A stretch of 64,000 bases of DNA from Podarcis cretensis (Eukaryota). The notes beneath the pieces were generated by a model. It saw only the letters and a list, made by a program, of their open reading frames with translations, made no database searches and was not told the origin of the DNA. Below, in pieces: positions 2,386 through 54,275 of the stretch. The translations under genes and the position numbers were made by a program. The stretch is taken from positions 65,782,001-65,846,000 of the forward strand of contig OX638155.1 of the NCBI GenBank assembly GCA_951804945.1, written 5' to 3'. Within the stretch, counting starts at the first letter, position 1, and the number at the start of each line of letters is the position of its first letter.

Positions 2386-3098
2386 ACCCCTTCATGGATC
2401 ACTGCCTTGCTGTGGCGAAAGGGCCTGAATAACTCAGAGAAGCTATGAGCTATGCTGTGCAGGGCCACCCAAGATGGATAGGTCATAGTGGAGAGTTTTG
2501 ACCAAACGTAATCCACCTGGAGCAGGAACCAGCAAGCCACTCCAGTATCCCTGCCAAGAAAACTCCATGGACAAAGACACCTATGACAAACCCAGACAGC
2601 ATCTTAAAAAGCAGAGACATCACCTTGCCAACAAATGTCCGTATAGTTAAAGCCATGGTTTTCCCAGTAGTGATGTATGGAAGTGAGAGCTGGACCATAA
2701 AGAAGGCTGATTGCCGAAGAATTGATGCTTTTGAATTATGGTGCTGGAGGAGACTCTTGAAAGTCCCATGGACTGCAAGAAGATCAAACCTCCCCATTCT
2801 TAAGGAAATCAGCCCTGAGTGCTCACTGGAAGGACAGATCCTGAAGCTGAGGCTCTAATACTTTGGCCACCTCATGAGAAGAGAAGACTCCCTGGAAAAG
2901 ACCCTGATGTTGGGAAAGATTGAGGGCACAAGGAGAAGGGGACGACAGAGGACAAAATGGTTGGACAGTGTTCTCGAAGCTACCAGCATGAGTTTGACCA
3001 AAGTGCGGGAGGCAGTGGAAGACAGGAGTGCCTGGCGTGCTCTGGTCCATGGGGTCATGAAGAGTTGTACATGACTAAACGACTAAACAACAAGAAGA
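2386..3098 (+). mobile_element. RTE-BovB LINE, internally deleted (5' region fused to the ORF 3' end)
   Basis: ORF pieces MTNPDSILKSRDITLPTNVRIVKAMVFPVVMYGSESWT... and MRREDSLEKTLMLGKIEG... are the BovB C-terminus. Tail gactaaacaacaa. Candidate TSD AGAACAA at 2379-2385 and 3099-3105. Confidence 0.9.
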
Positions 3099-16552: not shown

Positions 16553-16909
16553 AAGGTAAAGCTGAAGGTAAAGGGACCCCTGACCATTAGATTCAGTCGT
16601 GACCGACTCTGGGGTTGCGGCGCTCATCTCGCTTTATTGGCTTTATTGGTACAGCTTCCGGGTCATGTGGCCAGCATGACTAAGCCACTTCTGGCGAACC
16701 AGAGCAGCGCACGGAAATGCCGTTTACCTTCCCGCCAGAGCGGTACCTATTTATCTACTTGCACTTTGATGTGCTTTTGAACTGCTAGGTTGGCAGGAGC
16801 AGGGACTGAGCAACAGGAGCTCACCCCGTCGCAGGGATTTGAACCGCCGACCTTCTGATCGGCAAGTCCTAGGCTCTGTGGTTTAACCCACAGCGCCACC
16901 TGCGTCCCT
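16553..16909 (-). mobile_element. Sauria SINE, full length
   Basis: Minus-strand tRNA-like head gggacgcaggtggcgctgtgggttaaacc and (ACCTTT)-type tail. TSD taagt(a/g)aggta. Confidence 0.92.
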
Positions 16910-17019
16910 TAAGTGAGGTAGGGTAAGGTTTAAAAAGTTACAATAAAAATAAAATCAGTTATCCATAAGATCAGAAAGCATACTTAAAATGCCTGTTGAA
17001 ATTAAAAATAAAACTTCTC

Positions 17020-19267
17020 TTTTTTTAAAAAAAAAATAATGTTTATTACTTTTAAACACTACAAAAAAGAAAGAAAAAAGAAAAAAGACAAACAAAAAAC
17101 ACACACAATACAATACAATATAAAAACATTACACAGCACTAACACCATAGACTAAACAAAACAAAACAAAAACACTTTAACACACATCATACAATTTCAA
17201 TGTCATATCTTTCATTTACTTGTTTCAACGACCTCCTCACACCTCCCTTTTTGTATTCCACTTCTGTTGATTGTTTCAGCAATTCCTTTCCATCTTCCTC
17301 TGTTTTCTATCCTATAATTATCTTAACATATTCTAACCTTATTCTTCCCTAATACTCTAATAATCTATTTAAACTTAATTCCTTATAACATTTCTACTAA
17401 AGCCATATAACTTCATTCCAACATTTTTCTAACATTCATTAATTTTACAATATTTCTATAAATCGTCTTTAAACTTTTTCCAGTCTTCTTCCACCGACTC
17501 TTCTCCCTGGTCTTGGATTCCGCCAGTTTCATATAGTCCATCAACCTGGTGATCTTCTGTCCGATGCTCTTAGCTCTTTTCCAAGTCCCTTCTGCAGATC
17601 TTCTTCATATTTATACAAAAACTTTACTTTGTCTTCTACTGATCTTATTTTTATTTTCCTTCCTTTGAAGCTGAAGAGTAGACCTTGGGGAAACTCCCAC
17701 CTGAAGATGATTTTATTCCTTCTCAGCAAGGCAGCCAAATCTTCGTAGTTAGACCTAAGATCCAAAAGCTATTTCAGGGCGTCTTTAAAAATTTCAACTC
17801 TTGGCTGTTGTACCTCCAGGCTCCTCCGATAGTGCCAACAGTTTCCCACTCTGTTCCTCTCCCTTTTCCCTCCTCTTCCAAGTCTGAAGGCCCTCACAGT
17901 TTTAATCTCTTCTTGACCCAAGTCCAAGTCCCAAAAATCAGCAAATTCCTGTGTGAGGAAATCTATCATACTTTCCTTCTCCAACTCAGGTAGGGCTCTG
18001 ATCCTCAAATTCGTTTGTTTTTCTTTAAGCTCAATCATAGCAAGCGTCGACCTATGGTCATCCAGTTGCCTCTGCAAGGCTGGGACTCTCTCTCTCTCCA
18101 ATTGTGTTACATTACATTCAGCAGCAACGGCTTTCATCCTAGCTTCCTCCGTAGTCTGCCATGTTAAAGTAGATTCCTGGATCAATTTCTGGATGGTTCT
18201 GTATTGATATTCACCTTTTGTCCCAAATTATTTATACTTTCTGTATTAAATTGATTTTAGTAGTTGCAGCTTCCACTTTCGCATTTGTCACTTCTACTTT
18301 CTTGTTAAGCTGTTCCAGTGAATCACTTATCTTATTTAATGCAACCGCTAAGGCCTCTTCTATCGACATTCCTCTTGATTTTGAATATGCTGGTACAAAA
18401 GCAGTAGAAGAAGCAGCAGCAGGGGAGCCTGATGTAGAGGGAAACAGTTTCTATTTAAGTTAGTCAGTAATGTCCTTTTTTAAAACACAGCTCAAGCAAT
18501 GAAGTTAGTTTCAATTTTCAGTTACATTTACTCCTTTTTTAAAAGCAGACGGAGACAGTGGAAACAATGTATTTCTCTTATTAGCTAGCTGTCAACGAAC
18601 GATCGCTGTCAGTGAACGTTCCAAAAAACATCAGTCCTGCTAGCAGCCCGTTTCCAGGATCTGAGCGGCGGTATTTTAACTCTCTTTGCTCTCTCCCGCA
18701 GGCTTATTCAGTTCACAACTCCCCCCCTCTCCTCCTGCCTCCAAGGGGGGGTTTAATATTCTTTACCGATGGAAATTTAGTCCTTTACAATAGGCTTTCC
18801 AAGACTTCAGCTTGCAGCCTCATTGCTTCAGTCTATTTACAAAAGGGGAAGGCGGACTTCCTGTATTGAACCTCCCCATTACGATACCAAATTAAACGTT
18901 TAGAAATCCAATTCTCCCGCTTCAGCTCTACTCACGGGTAGTTACTTTAGATTCAAATTGTCCACAGGAAAAAGTCAGCGCTCTCTGGCAACAGCTATGT
19001 GGCTTTGCTCCGTGGAAGAAGCAGACAATTCGAAGCACCAGCGCTGCTCACCCCACGTCGCTCCAGACCCCCAAAACCGGGTTTCCCCATGAGTAGGGGA
19101 GGCGCAAAAGGTGCCTGCCGAATCCCACATTCACAGGCTTCTCCCGCCTGTGATTTTTTGCGTGTCTCCGCCTTTGCCGTGGCGGCCAGAACCAGATTCC
19201 CACGGGGCAAATTCCTCCCGATCAGAGGAATTCCGCCATTACTGGAGGCGCCAACCCGGAAGTCCCC
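17020..19267 (-). mobile_element. Non-autonomous L1 derivative (HAL1-like): 5'UTR, decayed ORF1, ORF2 C-terminal remnant, 3'UTR and A tail
   Basis: Perfect 17-bp TSD TAAAAATAAAACTTCTC at 17003-17019 and 19268-19284. CpG-rich 5' end GGGGACTTCCGG. L1 ORF1p-like motifs NLRIRALPE, RAFRLG and FRWEFPQGLLF. Confidence 0.88.
17541..18369 (-). pseudogene. L1 ORF1p-like coding region, disrupted
   Basis: ATG at 18369 gives MSIEEALAVALNKISDSLEQLNKKV (coiled coil). Frameshifts near 18250 and 18195 and an in-frame TAG at 17771-17769. Ends ...ELRASDRRSPG*. Confidence 0.8.
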
Positions 19268-32786: not shown

Positions 32787-33595
32787 AAAGCCTATAAGAC
32801 AAAAGTAGATAACCTCCATCCTGTGGCCTTAATTATACCCAGCATGACCCCACTGTAGCCTCCAAGACTGTTTCCCCCAAATCCTACCCTCCTGTCCCAT
32901 GCCTGACATAATATTTGATGTCAGGGATGAAGCAGGTGGAAACACAGTTACCAAGAAATGATCAGAACCCTTGAGGAGCTTGGTGCAGGACCCTTGTTGT
33001 CTGTGCTGACACCGAGCAACCTGCAGGGATCAGCTGTGCTATAGAATTCCCCACTGGGAACTTCAAAGCTGCCCTTTGCAGCAGAGGGAAGTTGCCACTG
33101 GCAAGTCCCTCCTGATGCAATTAGCTGCTTCAGGAGGGATTGCAGACTGGGAGGGGGGCAAAGGGTTAAATTTTAAAAAATCACTTACACAGCAGTCCCA
33201 AGCATGTGCGCTCTACCACAGTTGGTTGCCATGTAAAGCTACAAACAGACACATAAGGCACCGAGCCAAGGAATGCATGTAACATAGTACGTATTTTGGA
33301 AGATGAGTCCCACCTCTCCCGAATTCCCAGGAGAAGTGAGGGCTCAGCCAACAAGGATCCTCTTAAACTCTCAGAAGGTCATTGATCTGAGAACTTTCAC
33401 AGCTTACAGCCCTGATTTAGGCTCACTCCATTTTCTTTCGCAAGTGTTGTAAGAATTTTCTGTAATAGCTTATGGAAGCCACAACTGGACTTTAGCAAAT
33501 GTCTTCAAATAGTTTAATGGTGCTGGATGGTTCGTTTGTTACACTGCCCCTCATCCAAAGACATAAAGACCGGGTATCCTAGAAGCGAAAGGAAG

Positions 33596-35694
33596 ACTTC
33601 CGGAGGTGGCGCCTCCGACAATGGCGGATTCTCCCTGATTTAGAGGGAGACAGCTCCACAGAAACCGGGTCTTACTGCTGCAGCGAAGCGGGGACCCTTT
33701 CAAAAATCGCAGGCGGAAGAAGCCTGCAACCGTGGGACTCGGCGGGCACCGTTTGCGCCCCTCTGTTTGGCAAAGGAGCTCTACAAAGGGCTCCGGAGTG
33801 AGACGGTCGTTGGCGTGGTGCTGAGAGTCAATCGCTACTTCTGTGGAGTGAAGCTGCACAGCCAAAGTCGGAGAGCGCTGTCCTTTTTCCTATGCCAATT
33901 CGGATTTCAAACAACAACCCGTGAGTAGGACAATTGAAACTTGTGGATCAAAAGTATACCTTTGAATTAGAGCCGAGACGGGAAGTGTAAATAGGAAGTC
34001 CGCCTCCCGCTCTTTGTAGAAAGATCAAAGCAAAGACTTTACAAGCTAAAAGCCGTAAATTGACAGCCTGGAATTTCCTGCTCTTTTAACTACCAAACCC
34101 CCCTGACAGCAGGAGGATAGGGGGAAAACAAATCGTGACTTTGCAAATCCTGCAGAGAGTAATTTAAGAAAATAAGTCTTCACTGTTCCTGACCTGGGGA
34201 CGGAATGAAAGGAAAGAAACTGTCGGTGGTGCCTATAACAGGAATATAAGAAATCTGACAGATAGAGTTGGAAGGGGGAAAAAAGTCCAATGCTGCCTTC
34301 TGCCTGATTGTTTTATATTGAAAGGAAACAAAATATCTGAAAATCGAAAGTAACTTTTATTTTCCCTTGTTGGATACACTGTAAAAATGGATGCTAAAAA
34401 GTAACTACACCCCCTAGAGGAGGTCTGCCAGTGCTTTTGTTTTATTCTATAAAGAGAACATAGCAGCTGGGAAAATCAGACTGTGGGACCAGCTTTCTGA
34501 CCTTGACAGAATGATGAGAGAGGAAGTTTTATCTGCCCTGGACAAAATATATGATGTGCTGCAACAGATGGATGAGAAAGTGTCTCTTATGAATCAAGAG
34601 ACGGCCTACATTTTAGCTGCAGTTAATAAGGAGGTGCCAATGGAATGTACAGTTACAGAAATTGCACAACAATCTACCCAGGATATTGACTTAGGGCAAG
34701 CGCATGAAGTTATGAATGTATCTCATAAGACACAGAGTCTTCAAGTTTTACAGGATCAGAAGCCGCAACATTGGGAGATGGAATTCGCAGGACACTGGTT
34801 AAATTGTGGACTTAAGAGAGTTATTATCTTTGGTGGGATTGTGAAACAAGGGGAAGATTATCCTTGGATTTACTACCCTTTGGATTACAAACTAGATATT
34901 GGGGAGTGCAACACTGGGGAATGGGACAACTGGATAAAAGGAGATGAAGAATTTTACTGCATAGAGTCCTCCAGGGATTGGCTCCCCAAAGAGAAAGAGA
35001 AGAAAATACGAAAGAATACAACAGGGAACAAGGATCTATGTAACTACAAACAGAAACAAGAAAACTCGCAGAGGGGGCCTGGAGGTGACTTGAGTGCCTC
35101 AGATATTAGAACGCCGGACTGACAAGGGTGAAAGACTTAAGGACTGACATTATCCGGAACCAGGAAAAGGGACGTTGGAGAAACTTAAAATGAGAAATGC
35201 TTTTGTAATAAATTCATATTTATGGAATTAGTGTAATTCTAATGAAATACTGAGATGCTGGAAAGGAAGTAATTGGCTTTAGCAATGGTTTAAATCTAAG
35301 AATTTTAAAGATTTGAGGACAAGATAAAATTGGGGAAATAAGAATTTGTAAGAATGGGTTGATTATAAATGAAAATATGAGGTAAATATCACATGGGGAT
35401 ATATAATTAAGGGTAAGACAAGTGGCTATGAATTTGCTGAATTAAATTTAAAATGGAATACAAGGAGGGAGGTGAGAGGAAGTCAGGAAAATAAGTTAAA
35501 GAATGTTGAGAATTTGAAAGGAGAGATTTTTATTTTTATTTTTCTTATCTTTTTGTTTTTTGTGTGGAATTTTTGATTTTTGATTACTGTAATTTTTCTT
35601 TTTCTGTCTCTGATGTTGTTGGTTTTTTTGTTATCTTTGTGGTCTTTATTCTTGAGAAAACTTAATAAAATATTATTAAAAAAAAGAAAGAAGA
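33596..35694 (+). mobile_element. Non-autonomous L1 derivative (HAL1-like), diverged relative of 17020-19267
   Basis: Perfect 15-bp TSD AGAAGCGAAAGGAAG at 33581-33595 and 35695-35709. 5' end (g)acttccggaggtggcgcctcc...aatggcgga. AATAAA followed by an A-rich tail. Shares 5'UTR and 3'UTR blocks with the 17-19 kb element. Confidence 0.88.
34511..35122 (+). CDS. Intact 203-aa ORF of the non-autonomous element; highly diverged L1 ORF1p derivative
   Basis: Longest ORF in the track. MMREEVLSALDKIYDVLQQMDEKV aligns with MSIEEALAVALNKISDSLEQLNKKV, EFAGHW with EFADFW, and QRGPGGDLSASDIRTPD* with QKGLGKELRASDRRSPG*. Expression unknown. Confidence 0.6.
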   Translation: MMREEVLSALDKIYDVLQQMDEKVSLMNQETAYILAAVNKEVPMECTVTEIAQQSTQDIDLGQAHEVMNVSHKTQSLQVLQDQKPQHWEMEFAGHWLNCGLKRVIIFGGIVKQGEDYPWIYYPLDYKLDIGECNTGEWDNWIKGDEEFYCIESSRDWLPKEKEKKIRKNTTGNKDLCNYKQKQENSQRGPGGDLSASDIRTPD

Positions 35695-38600
35695 AGAAGC
35701 GAAAGGAAGTGCTACCTCAATCAAATATTCAAGTTGTTTCTTTTAGATGGTGTTTTGTTTTCCCCACAAAACTTTATCGCCCTTGTTGTTTGGGAATTAA
35801 TACAAATGCTTTCAGAGCCACAATATATTAAGGTTTTACTGAGCACTCCAAGAAGTTGTTCATCTCTTTTGAGAAACACAAAATTCAAATTGCCTTCATT
35901 AGCAGAGCAATATAGTGTGGAAAATGAGCCTGGTACTTTTCAAGGGGGATGGCAATTTGCATTTTTGCTAAATAATCAAGCTGTTGCATTCTCCCACCCT
36001 CTTGTAGGACAGAGGAACATGCGAAGAACAATCACTCAACCAGCTAATCCTCTTGACACTCTGGAGTTCAATTTCGTTTTTAAACAAACTGTCACTGAAG
36101 TTCTCGGCTGTTTTATAAGATATTTTAAGTGACAGCAGACCATACAAGGACTGTACTCACAGAAACCACCACTTATGCCAGGAGCTGGGACTGGGGTGTC
36201 TAACTCTGAAGAATACCTTATACCTTTAATCTAGTTATATATTTTGCTCCACTGTGACTTTTGGATGTCTAAGATAGTGTCTTCACAAAGGGACCTTGCC
36301 TGGGGATTTTCGTACCTCAACTCAAAAGGTTAAATGTATTTTTAATTATTTTAATTTTAATTATTTTAATTATTTAATTATTTAAATTAGTTGTTTTGAG
36401 AATTTGTATAAGCTTAATTCTGTTGAATTGTGATTTCCCACCCCCATGTAGTTTCAGTGACATTTCTTTAGTGAAAAATTTAACTAATAACTAAAAAGTT
36501 ACTGTGGCCATTACTGATTTAGTACCCGATGGAAGTAAACTGGAGTATGACTGGAGAGGCTAGGAGGAGAAGGAAGGAAAAGCCCTGTTTTGCTAACAGA
36601 ACTCTGCGTACAGCTCATATGTTTGGGCCTAATTCTGTGAAACTCCCTCCCATTTGAGATCAGATGGAACCCCTACCTGTTGAACCTTTGGTACTTGGTA
36701 AAGACCTTTTCCAGAAGGCATTTTAAGTGACTTTTCAGATTTAACTTCACTGTACACAGCTAAGGGAGCAATTCAATTTAGCACTAAGGAGATCACTCCC
36801 TTAGCATAAGGCATAAGCATTTCTGCTTGCCTGATGGAACAATCTCTTTCCTCCCTCCTTTGTGTTTCATTCAGGAGTTTCTCTCAACACTCTCACTGAG
36901 CATTTTTCCTTTTTTTGGGGGGGGAGACCCTGTTGCACTTGGAAAAGTCTTGCATGGGCTTCTGCTAGCAGGTCTAGTTAGTTGGAATATAAATTGTTGA
37001 TATATACATTGTTGAAGGGGAGTACAAGCAGTGATAGTTGATAGGTGTGCTGTGCCAGGTTACATTTCCTCTTCGTATAACTTTCTTTAGCAGATTGCAC
37101 AAATTCCTGCTGGTGTGAATGCAATTCAAAAGCACTATAATATACTGTATTGATTAATATCCAGCAATCTGAATTTGTTACTGAATTATTATAGTGTTCT
37201 GCACTACTGGCCACACACACACATATGTCATCATCATCTTGTTTGATAACCTGCAGAGTAGATTATTTCCTCTTGTCTAAGAAACACGTTCTGAATATGC
37301 TTCCAGGCATCACGTTGTAGAAAAGGGACATTGGGGCAACACTCTGTGATGTGATGTTGACCCAATAATGCCTCAAGTGACATTTATGCCTGATGCTGAG
37401 AACTGCTGCACCAGGAAATAACTACTTCAGAAGAGGAGAGTGCTGATAATTTGTGATGTTGAGCTAGCACAACGACGATGCCACCCTCAGTGGTGCAGAC
37501 ACTGTAACTATACCCCACCAATCACAAAGGTTTAGAATTTGGCAATTAGAGCCTTACATCTACAAACATTTCACATATCCTAGTATCATGACTTATTGCT
37601 AGACAACCCAATATTATTAAACTGTGGTAACAGTGGTTTGGCAAGATGAAGCAGCACAGCTGTAGCCACTCTAATATCTCCCCCTTGAAAGTGCAACTTT
37701 TCCTCGCATCAGTATCTCTTCAAAAGCCTAGAGATACAGTAAACAGTGCCTCCCTCAGCGCAGCTGCAGTAATCAGCCATGCCCCTTGCACCAGCTTGAG
37801 AACCCAGAATTTTGATCCAAGATGCTTTGGCTTTAACACCAACTCCTACACTGCAAGACCCACAACAAAGCGAAAAAGAGTCAATTCCAAAACCATTTGT
37901 AAATTTGATCTTTAGTGAGCAGATCAAAGGAAATGCATTGCAGTGGGTATCTGACGTGTTTCTCTGGTTAGGTCTTTAATTAAAATTCTATCCCATAGCA
38001 TTTTCTTCGGCTGCTGCTTTGCTATTGAGGTTCCTGAATTACCAAATGCTTCCTCTGATGCCGAGGTGAGATTTAAAGCTCTAAGTACACAGTAAACCAT
38101 GAGCGGCAGAGTTCATTTTGCTGTCAAGGGGATAGGATTTCATCTGACATAAGTGAGAATCCTATAGGTTTCTGTGATAGTTGAGATCAATAAACTGCTG
38201 TCTTATTGAGCCTGCCACGCTGAAAAAAAAAATGCACCATTTAGATGTGTTACTATGCTGGACTCATCCTAGGTAGTATTAGATTAAATCCTTGTTACGG
38301 ATATTTAAATGCAAACATTGTTCAATAAAAGCCCGAGTTGGGGGGGGGGAGGTGGATCCCTGAAAAAGAAAAGAAAAAAAGTGTCCACAGTTACCCCAAA
38401 CCAATCAATAAACCTCAATATACATTTTGTATGCTCATAAAGCCTTAATTACCAATTCTAGCCTTTTCTCCTTGAAGGACATTTTAATTTGAGTTCAGGA
38501 TATAGTTCCTTCCTTTTACAGACATCACAGATAACTATTTTGCCTTAAAAACCATATTGTTTGAACCGGACATCATGCAGCAAGCAAATCCATTTAATGT

Positions 38601-39612: not shown

Positions 39613-39717
39613 ACCATGATTCACAATATATTGCCAGGTCAAAAATTATGAAACCGATATCACGATATGGACTTCAAATCAGCATTGGACATTATATCAA
39701 TATATCCCCCAGCCCTA
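39410..39717. mobile_element. hAT-like non-autonomous element fragment containing a (CT)n(CA)n microsatellite
   Basis: Repeated cgatat/atatc motifs and terminus atatatccccagcccta. Microsatellite at 39550-39613. Confidence 0.55.
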
Positions 39718-39719
39718 GT

Positions 39720-40320
39720 AGCCAATGTAATTCTGGGCTGCATCAATAGGAGTATTGCATCTAGATCAAGGGAAGTAATAGTGCCACTGTATTCTGCTCT
39801 GGTCAGACCTCACCTGGAGTACTGTGTCCAGTTCTGGGCACCACAGTTCAAAAAGGACACTGACAAACTGGAACGTGTCCAGAGGAGGGCAACCAAAATG
39901 GTCAAAGGCCTGGAAACGATGCCTTATGAAGAACGGCTAAGGGAGCTGGGCATGTTTAGCCTGGAGAAGAGGAGGTTAAGGTATGGTATGATAGCCATGT
40001 TCAAATATATAGAAGGATGTCACATAGAGGAGGGAGAAAGGTTGTTTTCTGCTGCTCCAGAGAAGCGGACACGGAGCAATGGTTCCAAACTACAAGAAAA
40101 AAGATTCCACCTAAACATTAGGAAGAACTTCCTGACAGTAAGAGCTGTTCGACAGTGGAATTCGCTGCCAAGGTGTGTGGTGGAGTCTCCTTCTTTGGAG
40201 GTCTTTAAGCAGAGGATTGACAACCATATGTCAGGAGTGCTCTGATGGTGTTTCCTGCTTGGCAGGGGGTTGGACTCGATGGCCCTTGTGGTCTCTTCCA
40301 ACTCTATGATTCTATGATTC
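39720..40320 (+). mobile_element. CR1 LINE, 5'-truncated, ORF2 C-terminus still open
   Basis: [46 protein letters not shown]...[13 protein letters not shown]. (ATTCTATG)n tail. Candidate TSD CTAGTA. Confidence 0.95.
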
Positions 40321-46570: not shown

Positions 46571-47513
46571 CACCACAAGCAGAAACTGCCTCCTTGACCA
46601 TTGGACCCACTATTAGTCTCATGTGCTCAATCCAATAGTTATTTTATTATGAACTAATTAAATTAAACCTCTGCATTTAGTGACAGTATGCCTCTGAATA
46701 ACAGTTAATAGGGCACCTACATGCCTTGTTTATGGGTTCCTTGGAAAGCTCTGACTGGCCACTCTGGGAAACAGGACCTGCGACTGAATGAAGCCTTGCC
46801 ATTGCCCAGCAGGGTCCTTATCTTCTTAACAGACCCCACCTTACAGGAGAAGCCTGCTTCACACTTTGAGAACTGCTACTGAATTCTCAACATAGTTCTT
46901 TGAATTATTGATCACACCCATTAAGAAAGCAATTTCGTACAAAGTAAACTCAAGATACAGGGGGAAATCTTGCTGCCTGGAATACACGACACAGAGAAGA
47001 AACAACTAAACACAATATAGGCAACGGAGTGAGGTGGAAACAAAAGATGGTCCAAGAGGGTGTGCAGTTAATCACATTCATTCATTATCTGGGGGGAAAG
47101 GGATAGCTAGTGAGTGAGTTTTCCAATTTTTCTGACTATACGTAACAGCTCAAGATGCAGACATCTAAAGCAGACAGCGAGCTCTGTAGCACTTAGTCTC
47201 AAAACAAGGTGACTGGCAATAGAATGGGAAATGAAATCCAATGTTGGTAACCGCATAGTGGGAAGAAACCCTAACTTGGCTGTAAATCACTCAGGGAATA
47301 TAAATCATCAGAATCAGTGTCCCTAAAAGGGAAGGGGGAAAGACTGCTAAAATAAGGGAGGAGAGGAAACATCTTATTTAAGATTATACCCTGATTTATT
47401 CTGGAAGCTCAATCTAATTCCACTTTGGCATAGACTTGAAGGCCCCCAAATCCAGAAAGCACTCCCCGCCCGCCATGACCTGGTGAGCATATTTAGATGA
47501 GTAGACCCAACAA

Positions 47514-47874
47514 GGGACGCGGGTGGCACTGTGGGTAAAACCTCAGCGCCAAGGACTTGCCGATCGCATGGTCGGCAGTTCGAATCCCAGTGGCAGGGTG
47601 CGCTCCCGTCGTTCGGTCCCAGCGCTTGCCAACCTAGCAGTTCGAAAGCACCCCCGGGTGCAAGTATATAAATAGGGACCGCTTACCAGCGGGAAGGTAA
47701 ACGGCATTCCGTGTGCTGCACTGGCTCGCCAGATGCAGCTTGTCATGCTGGCCACGTGACCCGGAAGTGTCTGTGGACAGCGCTGGCTCCCGGCCTATAG
47801 AGTGAGATGAGCGCACAACCCTAGAGTCTGTCAAGACTGGCCCATACGGGCAGGGGTACCTTTACCTTTACCTT
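47514..47874 (+). mobile_element. Sauria SINE, full length (distinct subfamily)
   Basis: Head gggacgcgggtggcactgtggg, B box gttcgaatcc, tail acctttacctttacc. TSD tagaccc. Confidence 0.92.
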
Positions 47875-52850: not shown

Positions 52851-53922
52851 CTATAAAATCTTAAGGAATTTCCTTCCACTTGCATAGAAAGGTCTCTTTT
52901 TCAGATAGCTAAAAAAGACCATCACAATATATTATTTTGATCAGCGGCTGTGACTGATAGACTAAGGGGTCTTCTGAAGAGTGCATGTATGTACTAATTT
53001 GTATTTAAAATAAGACTATATTATGTGTGTTTTATAGATTGTAAGCACTATAATTTGTAATAATAAAAGGGTGTGATTTATCTTTAAAAATAAACATAGA
53101 CATCCATAATCTTTCAGATGGTTTTAGCCTGAACAAATGTAAGGGCAACATGCGGTTCTCATGCATTGATACTATACAGCTATTACACCAATAAGCAGCA
53201 CTCATACACATTGCAGTAAGCAAATAACAAAAGACAGATGGTCTCACCTTAAGGTGATATCACTACATCAAACGAAAGAGGCAAGGGATAAAGCAAAAAC
53301 AAGAACTATTATCCTATGTTAGAAATACTCTACATACATTTATTACACATAGAAATAAAATCTGGAACACAGTACAGAATTATTTGAGAAAAAGGTTGTT
53401 GTTTTCAAAAAATATTATTTTTGAAGTCATTTGAATCAGAGATCACCCATTGTTTACACTCACTGCAGATGTAATGGAAATACCTCTTTCCATTATGGAG
53501 ATTTAAGGAGATTGAGATTAGGCCACAGGACTGTAGCTACATCCCCTCTCTAGAGTATATTTATTTATTAAAAGCATTTATACACCACCTTTAGGCCCTA
53601 ATACAATTTACTACATTAAACTCATTAAATTATTTAAACCAGAAAGCATTAAAACAAGCCAATCAACAGGCAGATGGTAATTAAAATAAGTCCAAATCTA
53701 GGTTGAATTAAATGTTTAATGCATTTGCATTTAAATATACAGGATATGCGAGTACCAATTTAAGCCTCATGTGTGAAAATGACCTTGGACAATGTATTTC
53801 AGTGTTTCAGGATGGATAAACATTTTGTAACTTATTTTCCCTCTCATCTTAGCTGTGCCTGAGTGCTACAGTCCAGCCAATAACAGTAAACTATGGTTAA
53901 GACTAACTAGGGTTTAATTTTA

Positions 53923-54275
53923 AAAGGTAAAGGTAAAGGACCCCTGACAGTTAAGTTCAGTTACAAACGACTGTGGGGTTGCAGCGCTCATCTCGCTTTA
54001 CTGGCCGGGGGAGCCGGCGTTTGTCCATAGACAGTTTTTCCAGGTCATGTGGTCAGCATGACTAAGCGAAACCAGAACAGTGCACAGAAACGCCGTTTAC
54101 CTTCCCGCCGGAGCAGTACCGATTTATCTATTTGCACTCTGACATGCTTTTGAACTGCTAGGTTGGCAGGAGCTGGGACCGAACAATGGGAGCTCACCAC
54201 ATTGCGGGGATTCGAACCGCCGACCTTCCAATCAACAAGCCCTAGGCTCTGTGGTTTAGACCACAGTGCCACCCG
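53923..54275 (-). mobile_element. Sauria SINE
   Basis: (AAAGGT)n tail complement, body homologous to 16553-16909, TSD tagggtttaa. Confidence 0.92.

Follow-up and report, generated by a model that had tools for sequence, protein, structure and literature searches.

A full-length non-autonomous L1 derivative with an eroded ORF1

The window, the whole 64,000-nucleotide stretch of Podarcis cretensis DNA that was analysed, carries on its plus strand at 33595..35694 a full-length non-autonomous L1 deletion derivative of ~2.1 kb, a member of what we call family B. The element is enclosed by a 15-bp target-site duplication, the 5′ copy of which (33581..33595) shares its last base with the element start and the 3′ copy of which lies at 35695..35709; this 15-mer occurs in the window at 33581 and 35695 only, and the two occurrences are identical. 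An L1-type 5′ UTR/promoter (33595..34510), which begins GACTTCCGG...ATGGCG as in the lizard clade-1 L1, is followed by an eroded ORF1 of 203 aa (34511..35122), by a decayed stretch corresponding to the final ~40 ORF2 codons with the L1 3′ UTR after it (35123..35663), and by AATAAA with an A-rich tail (35664..35694), all on the plus strand. The segment 35123..35663 aligns colinearly with the 3′ end of the autonomous copy L132, comprising the end of its ORF2 and its 3′ UTR. The 5′ consensus of the lizard clade-1 L1 is given in PMC5381506.

A search of the 1.5 Gb genome returned 24 matches to the element at 94–100% identity, the majority of which cover it entirely; the nearest copies are 99% identical. 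L1-type 5′ ends number 3,336 in the genome, and a control pattern gave 0. Copies are carried by many contigs, and an exact target-site duplication of at least 9 nt was found for 32 of 55 copies examined. The poly(A), the target-site duplications and the dispersed copies show that the element has multiplied by retrotransposition. It is HAL1-like, being non-autonomous and having arisen by deletion of nearly all of ORF2 from an L1. From this structure, ORF2p is probably supplied in trans by autonomous L1, young copies of which (L304, L305 and L308, at 99%) are present in the genome.

Two putative splice-like motifs are conserved in the 5′ UTR, a donor-like GTGAGT (33921..33926, plus strand) and a branch-point/acceptor-like stretch ending in AG (34400..34417, plus strand). 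With loose patterns, the donor-like site was found in 178 and the acceptor-like site in 161 of 192 full-length 5′ ends. The two sites lie ~490 nt apart and are kept in L1, in all ORF-bearing families and in an ORF-less family, G, described below. In 7 of 7 B subfamilies, the ATG of the ORF is the first one past the acceptor-like site. The 192 full-length 5′ ends yielded no spliced genomic copy; the 14 lacking a donor-like site were inspected by eye. The elements are often nested in, or adjoin, each other or other L1 copies (L058, L063, L087, L181, L297, L369). Elsewhere in the window, the stretches 39650-40320, 2390-3090, 16560-16910, 47510-47870 and 53920-54275 are, as we assume by eye and from self-comparison, ordinary squamate repeats, presumably CR1-like 3′ ends, an RTE/Bov-B-like fragment and Sauria-SINE-like copies.

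The ORF at 34511-35122 (+) translates without a stop and lies within 34418-35122, the window's longest frame free of stops. The first-pass annotation had described it as an L1 ORF1p derivative that lost its conserved motifs, and both parts of this description were borne out. Profile-profile comparison (HHalign) of 12 family ORFs with 11 L1 ORF1p gave a colinear and significant alignment of 201 columns (96.4%, E 1.4e-9), the segments quoted as common with another element of the window, copy 1, are found in both, and NLRIRALPE and FRWEFP are missing from the 203-aa ORF. The centre is rich in Trp, Tyr and acidic residues as described, residues 81-160 being net acidic with 14 W/Y/F in 80 aa. The ORF had been judged ~70 aa shorter than the ORF1 of copy 1; it is shortened, but the loss is larger, since the copy-1 family has an intact ORF of 327 aa, and autonomous ORF1p measure 384-396 aa. 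Copy 1 itself, which had been taken for an L1, is rather another ORF1-only element (17020..19264, minus strand), a member of family A, which is a less eroded family of the same radiation; the copy is broken by a frameshift and an internal stop. By BLASTP, similarity to the intact ORF of the copy-1 family is significant over the C-terminal 77 aa only (E 8e-5).

In the family B ORF, the RRM is mostly deleted and the CTD motifs are replaced. AlphaFold2 (mean pLDDT 42.6) predicts a single helix, residues 3-41, where alone the pLDDT exceeds 50, and no fold beyond residue 41; no conserved basic patch or RNA-binding domain is left in the ORF. Pfam scans of the 203-aa ORF, five relatives and the parent ORF1p gave nothing above the curated cut-off, the ESM Atlas gave no usable match, and the homologue searches returned two family relatives only, both of them predictions from contigs (P0002, P0005). 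The profile of the parent ORF1p reached human ORF1p in a PDB sequence search at E 0.071 only; a fold search was therefore used, in which the model of the parent, with its coiled coil, RRM and CTD, matched human L1 ORF1p (Foldseek E 2.9e-6). These data show that the family B ORF originated from L1 by internal deletion and that its RRM and CTD were eroded through in-frame changes. Tested against the three parts of a working ORF1p (coiled coil, RRM, CTD), it fails to encode one.

Constraint on the frame, the C-terminal tail and the N-terminal helix

One hundred family B loci were fetched, 14 of which were redundant, being the same locus as another or identical to one. Among the 86 distinct copies, the ORF is intact in 50 and broken or (5′-)truncated in 36; the intact copies encode 201-213 aa and span subfamilies down to 72% identity. 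None of the 86 copies carries a stop or frameshift shared by a clade, whereas simulation predicted 30-34 stop-creating changes on the internal branches of the family (1.18 substitutions per site). Openness by chance, which the first-pass annotation had set against its own proposal, thus does not hold for the family. The openness of the copy at 34511-35122 is in part a matter of its youth, and it is the family data that speak against chance; this copy differs at 5 codons in a near-private way, and 3 of these differences change the amino acid. One CpG codon was converted from CGA to TGA in 8 separate copies, none of them sisters, and the change founded no subfamily, while a CAA sense change of the same codon is fixed in one subfamily. 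When successive subfamilies were compared (seven comparisons), the ORF had 12 gaps and the UTRs 161 (87 + 74, of which 14 and 19, respectively, are divisible by three); the 12 ORF gaps are net in frame, partly since intact copies were chosen.

For family B, dN/dS was 0.55 on internal and 0.61 on terminal branches under a codon model that treats the two branch classes separately. As a non-coding control, codons were also read through the UTRs in the same orientation; the internal branches then gave 0.71-1.03. By this control the body of the ORF is weakly constrained, near neutral (0.55-0.75), and the terminal-branch value below 1 points to model bias or to unsampled evolution of the masters on terminal branches. 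Among the parts of the ORF, the C-terminal tail alone lies far outside the controls. The first-pass proposal of selection for translation itself stands as regards selection for the frame; translation alone is insufficient, because amino acids of the tail and heptad positions are constrained too.

The tail corresponds to codons 193-203 and the stop (35087..35122, plus strand), DLSASDIRTPD-stop. Across the families it reads [DE]L[RK]ASD[IV]RxP[GD]-stop, ending in Asp in family B and in Pro-Gly in most families, and its constraint reaches position -10 or -11. The youngest subfamily, including the copy at 34511-35122, has fixed Ser at position -9 in place of Arg/Lys. Position -3 varies among S, T, N, L and D, so a reading of the tail as a phosphorylation site was dropped. 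TGA, TAA and TAG all occur as the stop at the same position, TAG in a C subfamily. On the internal branches of family B, the last 12 codons gave a dN/dS of 0.07, the lowest of 17 windows (next 0.35), with a synonymous rate of 1.5x; the difference from the ORF average has a p value of 5e-5 for a window picked after the alignment was seen.

An earlier all-family fit on copies picked by the motif (tail dN/dS 0.098) was replaced by a motif-independent one, which combined 26 intact ORFs picked by their 5′ end with 18 B, 12 A and 13 L1 sequences and left the tail out of the tree. In the eroded lineages, the last 11 codons had a dN/dS of 0.147 versus 0.75 for the body (p 1.6e-6), whereas the L1 and A branches gave the reverse (tail 0.85, body 0.31). 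This shift indicates that constraint moved from the domains to the tail. The tail pattern occurs in the genome 1,767 times exactly when TGA or TAA is required after it and 1,987 times without requiring a stop, with 0 for the control; at least 1,767 copies thus keep the tail, in sister families that are otherwise unalignable. In ORF-bearing sisters the motif DNA has an identity of 0.78 versus 0.65 for its surroundings, and in family G 0.71 versus 0.81, with indels. Taken together, these data show that purifying selection acts on the tail and on the stop right behind it.

Just upstream of the tail, codons ~181-192 (35051-35086) had a synonymous rate of 0.36-0.44x the average in three fits, a possible RNA-level signal or composition effect.

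The predicted N-terminal helix (codons 3-41, 34517..34633, plus strand) is amphipathic and would be a remnant of the ORF1p coiled coil. In each of 19 lineage representatives, three of its heptad columns hold hydrophobic residues. Ancestral hydrophobic cells were kept in 108 of 133 cases at the N-terminus versus 303 of 600 elsewhere (p 0.004 by column, with the start Met included and lineages that are not independent). The dN/dS of the N-terminal 30 codons (0.69) is not below that of the rest of the ORF. Residues 1-45 modeled with two parent coiled coils gave a complex score of 0.38, a value that the tool grades as weak, while the best of 3 controls scored 0.00; passing scores of at most 0.60 came from 5 of 78 solved complexes and from all 4 mismatches that passed out of 180. 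These runs used no alignments and had a contact agreement of at least 89% and a partner pLDDT of at least 66. They lend weak support to the role of coiled-coil partner that had been suggested at first pass. Human ORF1p with distinct coiled coils are reported to form heterotrimers upon co-expression only (PMC10588031), and an article on lizard L1 indicates that lizard ORF1p may not be trimeric (PMC5381506).

Parent L1, sister families and the ORF-less family G

The autonomous L1 copies encode an ORF1p of 374-396 aa with ORF2 directly after it, and the named relatives of this parent ORF1p are wall-lizard proteins. Its C-terminal region carries two or three RASDRRSP-like repeats. In the non-autonomous elements ORF1 stops at the first repeat, after which come the final ~40 ORF2 codons and the 3′ UTR. 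The tail thus corresponds to a repeat that is relaxed in the parent L1, where it lies 45-60 residues before the stop; a young autonomous L1 family has an ORF1p without the tail motif. The ORFs of the non-autonomous families form a graded series, with 341 aa in A0, 327 in A1, 205-260 in D, 174-216 in E, F and C, and 201-213 in B. The eroded families are one clade (100/99) within the L1 ORF1 sequences, and the internal branches of their tree amount to ~4.7 substitutions per site. For families A0 and A1, the comparison of a single with a repeated origin of the deletion gave a p-AU of 0.26. Ile at position -5 occurs in two lineages; that they gained it independently is not claimed, as a single origin was not rejected (p-AU 0.22).

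The autonomous lizard ORF1p (L131-L150, L304-L308, P0006, P0008, P0010) have a conserved end of their own, EQxLGA[VT]GGxxx-stop, which sits a few bases upstream of ORF2 and could bear on ORF2 reinitiation. P0008 and P0009 are annotated as Podarcis muralis TRIM39-like proteins whose C-terminal half is an L1 ORF1p RRM/CTD; they represent either a gene-model artefact or a TRIM-ORF1p fusion.

A census of the first 80 of the 3,336 L1-type 5′ ends, all from one contig, comprised 46 ORF-bearing non-autonomous elements, 23 members of family G, 3 autonomous L1 and 8 interrupted or unassigned elements. The tail could be read in 43 of the 46 ORF-bearing elements, and 36 fit the loose motif. Five of the exceptions are single-copy lesions and two (L307, L321) belong to one drifted lineage. 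L307 and L321 have an open ORF of 182-185 aa with the drifted tail ASxVWD[LP]G-stop, a natural mutant. Family G, which derives from E, has lost the start codon, the long frame and the tail motif; it is the commonest class sampled (23/80), and its subfamilies are at 97-99% identity. The first-pass annotation had overlooked this spread of a sister lineage that has no long ORF. The 23 loci (L291-L366, e.g. L330, L310, L295) are ~1.65 kb long, L1-derived and devoid of a long ORF, so that family G is in effect a Pol II-type SINE from a HAL1-like ancestor. A conserved short ORF in family G was considered and dropped, the short frames differing among subfamilies.

Possible action of the tail and comparison with known systems

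We favour a reading, at a probability of about 0.4, in which a young ORF1-only L1 derivative is selected for its frame, its heptad helix and its last 11 residues, the tail likely pausing the ribosome at the stop. The fixed register of these residues with the stop suggests a pause at termination. They would remain in the ribosome exit tunnel until release, and delaying termination through a nascent-peptide pause would therefore be the simplest way to favour the RNA being translated; for a product without RNA-binding domains, the easiest time to do so would be before it leaves the ribosome. The exposed N-terminal helix might meanwhile join the ORF1p coiled coils of L1 particles, which would hold the poly(A) tail of the RNA close to newly made ORF2p and allow its capture, the middle of the ORF being a mere spacer. 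Such a model would parallel Alu with SRP9/14 and stalled ribosomes. Since family G is abundant and young without frame or motif, the device is dispensable, and tail and helix together would be an advantage, not a requirement. We suggest only tentatively that a relaxed repeat of the ORF1p tail became a new eukaryotic termination-pausing peptide and that the stalled nascent chain with its coiled-coil hook tethers the RNA to steal ORF2p. No stronger than this is our proposal that the tether does with protein what Alu does with SRP, and that one genome still contains all the evolutionary steps leading from an intact L1 to an element without an ORF.

Other explanations were weighed against a pause at termination. 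The frame could let ribosomes run to ~500 nt from the poly(A) site and so favour RNA stability and escape from nonsense-mediated decay, while the tail would be a termination or degradation signal for a useless or L1-poisoning product. This is doubtful in our view. It would account for a fixed stop position and for a body near neutral from which stops and frameshifts are excluded. RxxG and PG ends, which resemble C-degrons, also count for it, although family B ends in Asp, not Gly, and a constraint up to -10/-11 exceeds what such degrons need. Disposal could pay, given the report that truncated human ORF1p bearing the coiled coil suppresses L1 in trans (PMC5605252); however, the hydrophobic heptad positions would be left unexplained, and family G is abundant without the long frame. 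An action of the released mini-protein appears unlikely: coiled-coil helix, disordered spacer and a C-terminal short linear motif binding ORF2p or a host factor would together help elements of the same cell, with family G riding free. Constraint at both ends, the weak score for a predicted complex with the parent coiled coil (0.38 versus 0.00) and the existence of a cheater lineage, as expected if the product is shared, agree with such a role. Yet no RNA-binding domain or conserved basic patch is there to provide cis preference, constraint over ~4.7 substitutions per site is hard to sustain for a public good, and the strict stop register would suit an action at the ribosome better.

We hold it quite improbable that the conserved 33-36 nt act as a signal at the level of RNA or DNA, for instance as a site for ORF2p or a host factor, and that the peptide is incidental. 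Some third positions vary little, the Ala codon being nearly always GCC in the eroded families, and the 11-12 codons before the motif have the low synonymous rate (0.36-0.44x) given above. Inside the motif, however, the changes are synonymous and their rate is normal or high (0.98-1.5x), the stop switches between TGA, TAA and TAG, and the motif DNA decays after loss of the frame. The suggestion at first pass of a dominant-negative of L1 ORF1p, which would make the ORF a host-serving L1 inhibitor as proposed for L1TD1 (PMC4161310), is very hard to credit, even with the coiled-coil remnant and the precedent of suppression by truncated ORF1p (PMC5605252). The ORF belongs to an element that still multiplies with target-site duplications and is kept on the master lineage, whereas inserted copies decay (36/86 broken or truncated), and the locus, with its 5 near-private codon differences, of which 3 alter the amino acid, shows no sign of being special; multicopy decay likewise counts against a domesticated host gene like L1TD1. 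That the copy is open by chance, as merely young and purine-rich, retains next to no probability: its nearest copies, at 99% identity, had little time to break, but the family data (0 clade-level stops versus 30-34 expected; 12 gaps in the ORF versus 161 in the UTRs over 7 subfamily comparisons) refute it.

The constraint bears on two open questions, how non-autonomous RNAs overcome the cis preference of L1 and why HAL1 elements keep an ORF. The radiation amounts to a natural deletion scan, in which thousands of copies show the parts of ORF1 that an L1 parasite must keep; after loss of the RNA chaperone these are an 11-residue tail in the register of the stop and a few heptads. If the tail does pause ribosomes, it would represent a new eukaryotic arrest motif; if it does not, it is still a clean case of new constraint at a deletion junction. 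What is new is a sharply localised terminal constraint in a HAL1-like ORF that fails as a working ORF1p. Our search of the openly available literature found no paper that describes HAL1-like elements of lizards, or such an element with a terminal peptide under constraint; the families may already be catalogued elsewhere, for example in Repbase or Dfam.

The tail resembles 2A/StopGo and the bacterial RAPP/RAPG arrest peptides as a short motif of tunnel length with a Pro-Gly end in most families; against a pause, it lacks the tested features of 2A and RAPG peptides. The 2A consensus is DxExNPG or D[VI]ExNPG followed by Pro, whereas the tail has D[IV]RxP[GD] before its stop, lacks the consensus Glu and is in another register. 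Stalling has been reported for 2A with a stop after it (PMC13405545). Unlike R-A-P-G or R-[AG]-P-P, the tail reads R-[STNLD]-P-[GD], and according to PMC12992588 the RAPG of ApcA tolerates no change at the second position and RAPP-type peptides cause no arrest in reticulocyte lysate.

L1 ORF1p (lizard clade-1; human 2yko/2ykp/2ykq) is the direct ancestor of the family B ORF, which retains its N-terminal heptads but has no predicted fold past residue 41 and a tail constraint that is new. Mammalian HAL1 (Bao and Jurka 2010, as cited in PMC5753468, PMC3627910 and PMC13756887) is likewise described as a non-autonomous L1 derivative with a 5′ UTR, ORF1 only, a 3′ UTR and poly(A), and with a coding capacity that was long kept. 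Retention of its ORF has been read as a need for a cis-encoded ORF1p chaperone (PMC3627910). Family B, an element of a lizard, differs in that its RRM/CTD is destroyed, with constraint shifted to the terminal 11 residues and the first heptads, and one branch of the radiation later lost the ORF. The proposed logic is that of Alu with SRP9/14, in which a non-autonomous RNA is proposed to bring its poly(A) near nascent ORF2p via the ribosome (PMC11485995). Alu, however, is non-coding and relies on an RNA fold, whereas the lizard element would use its own nascent peptide.
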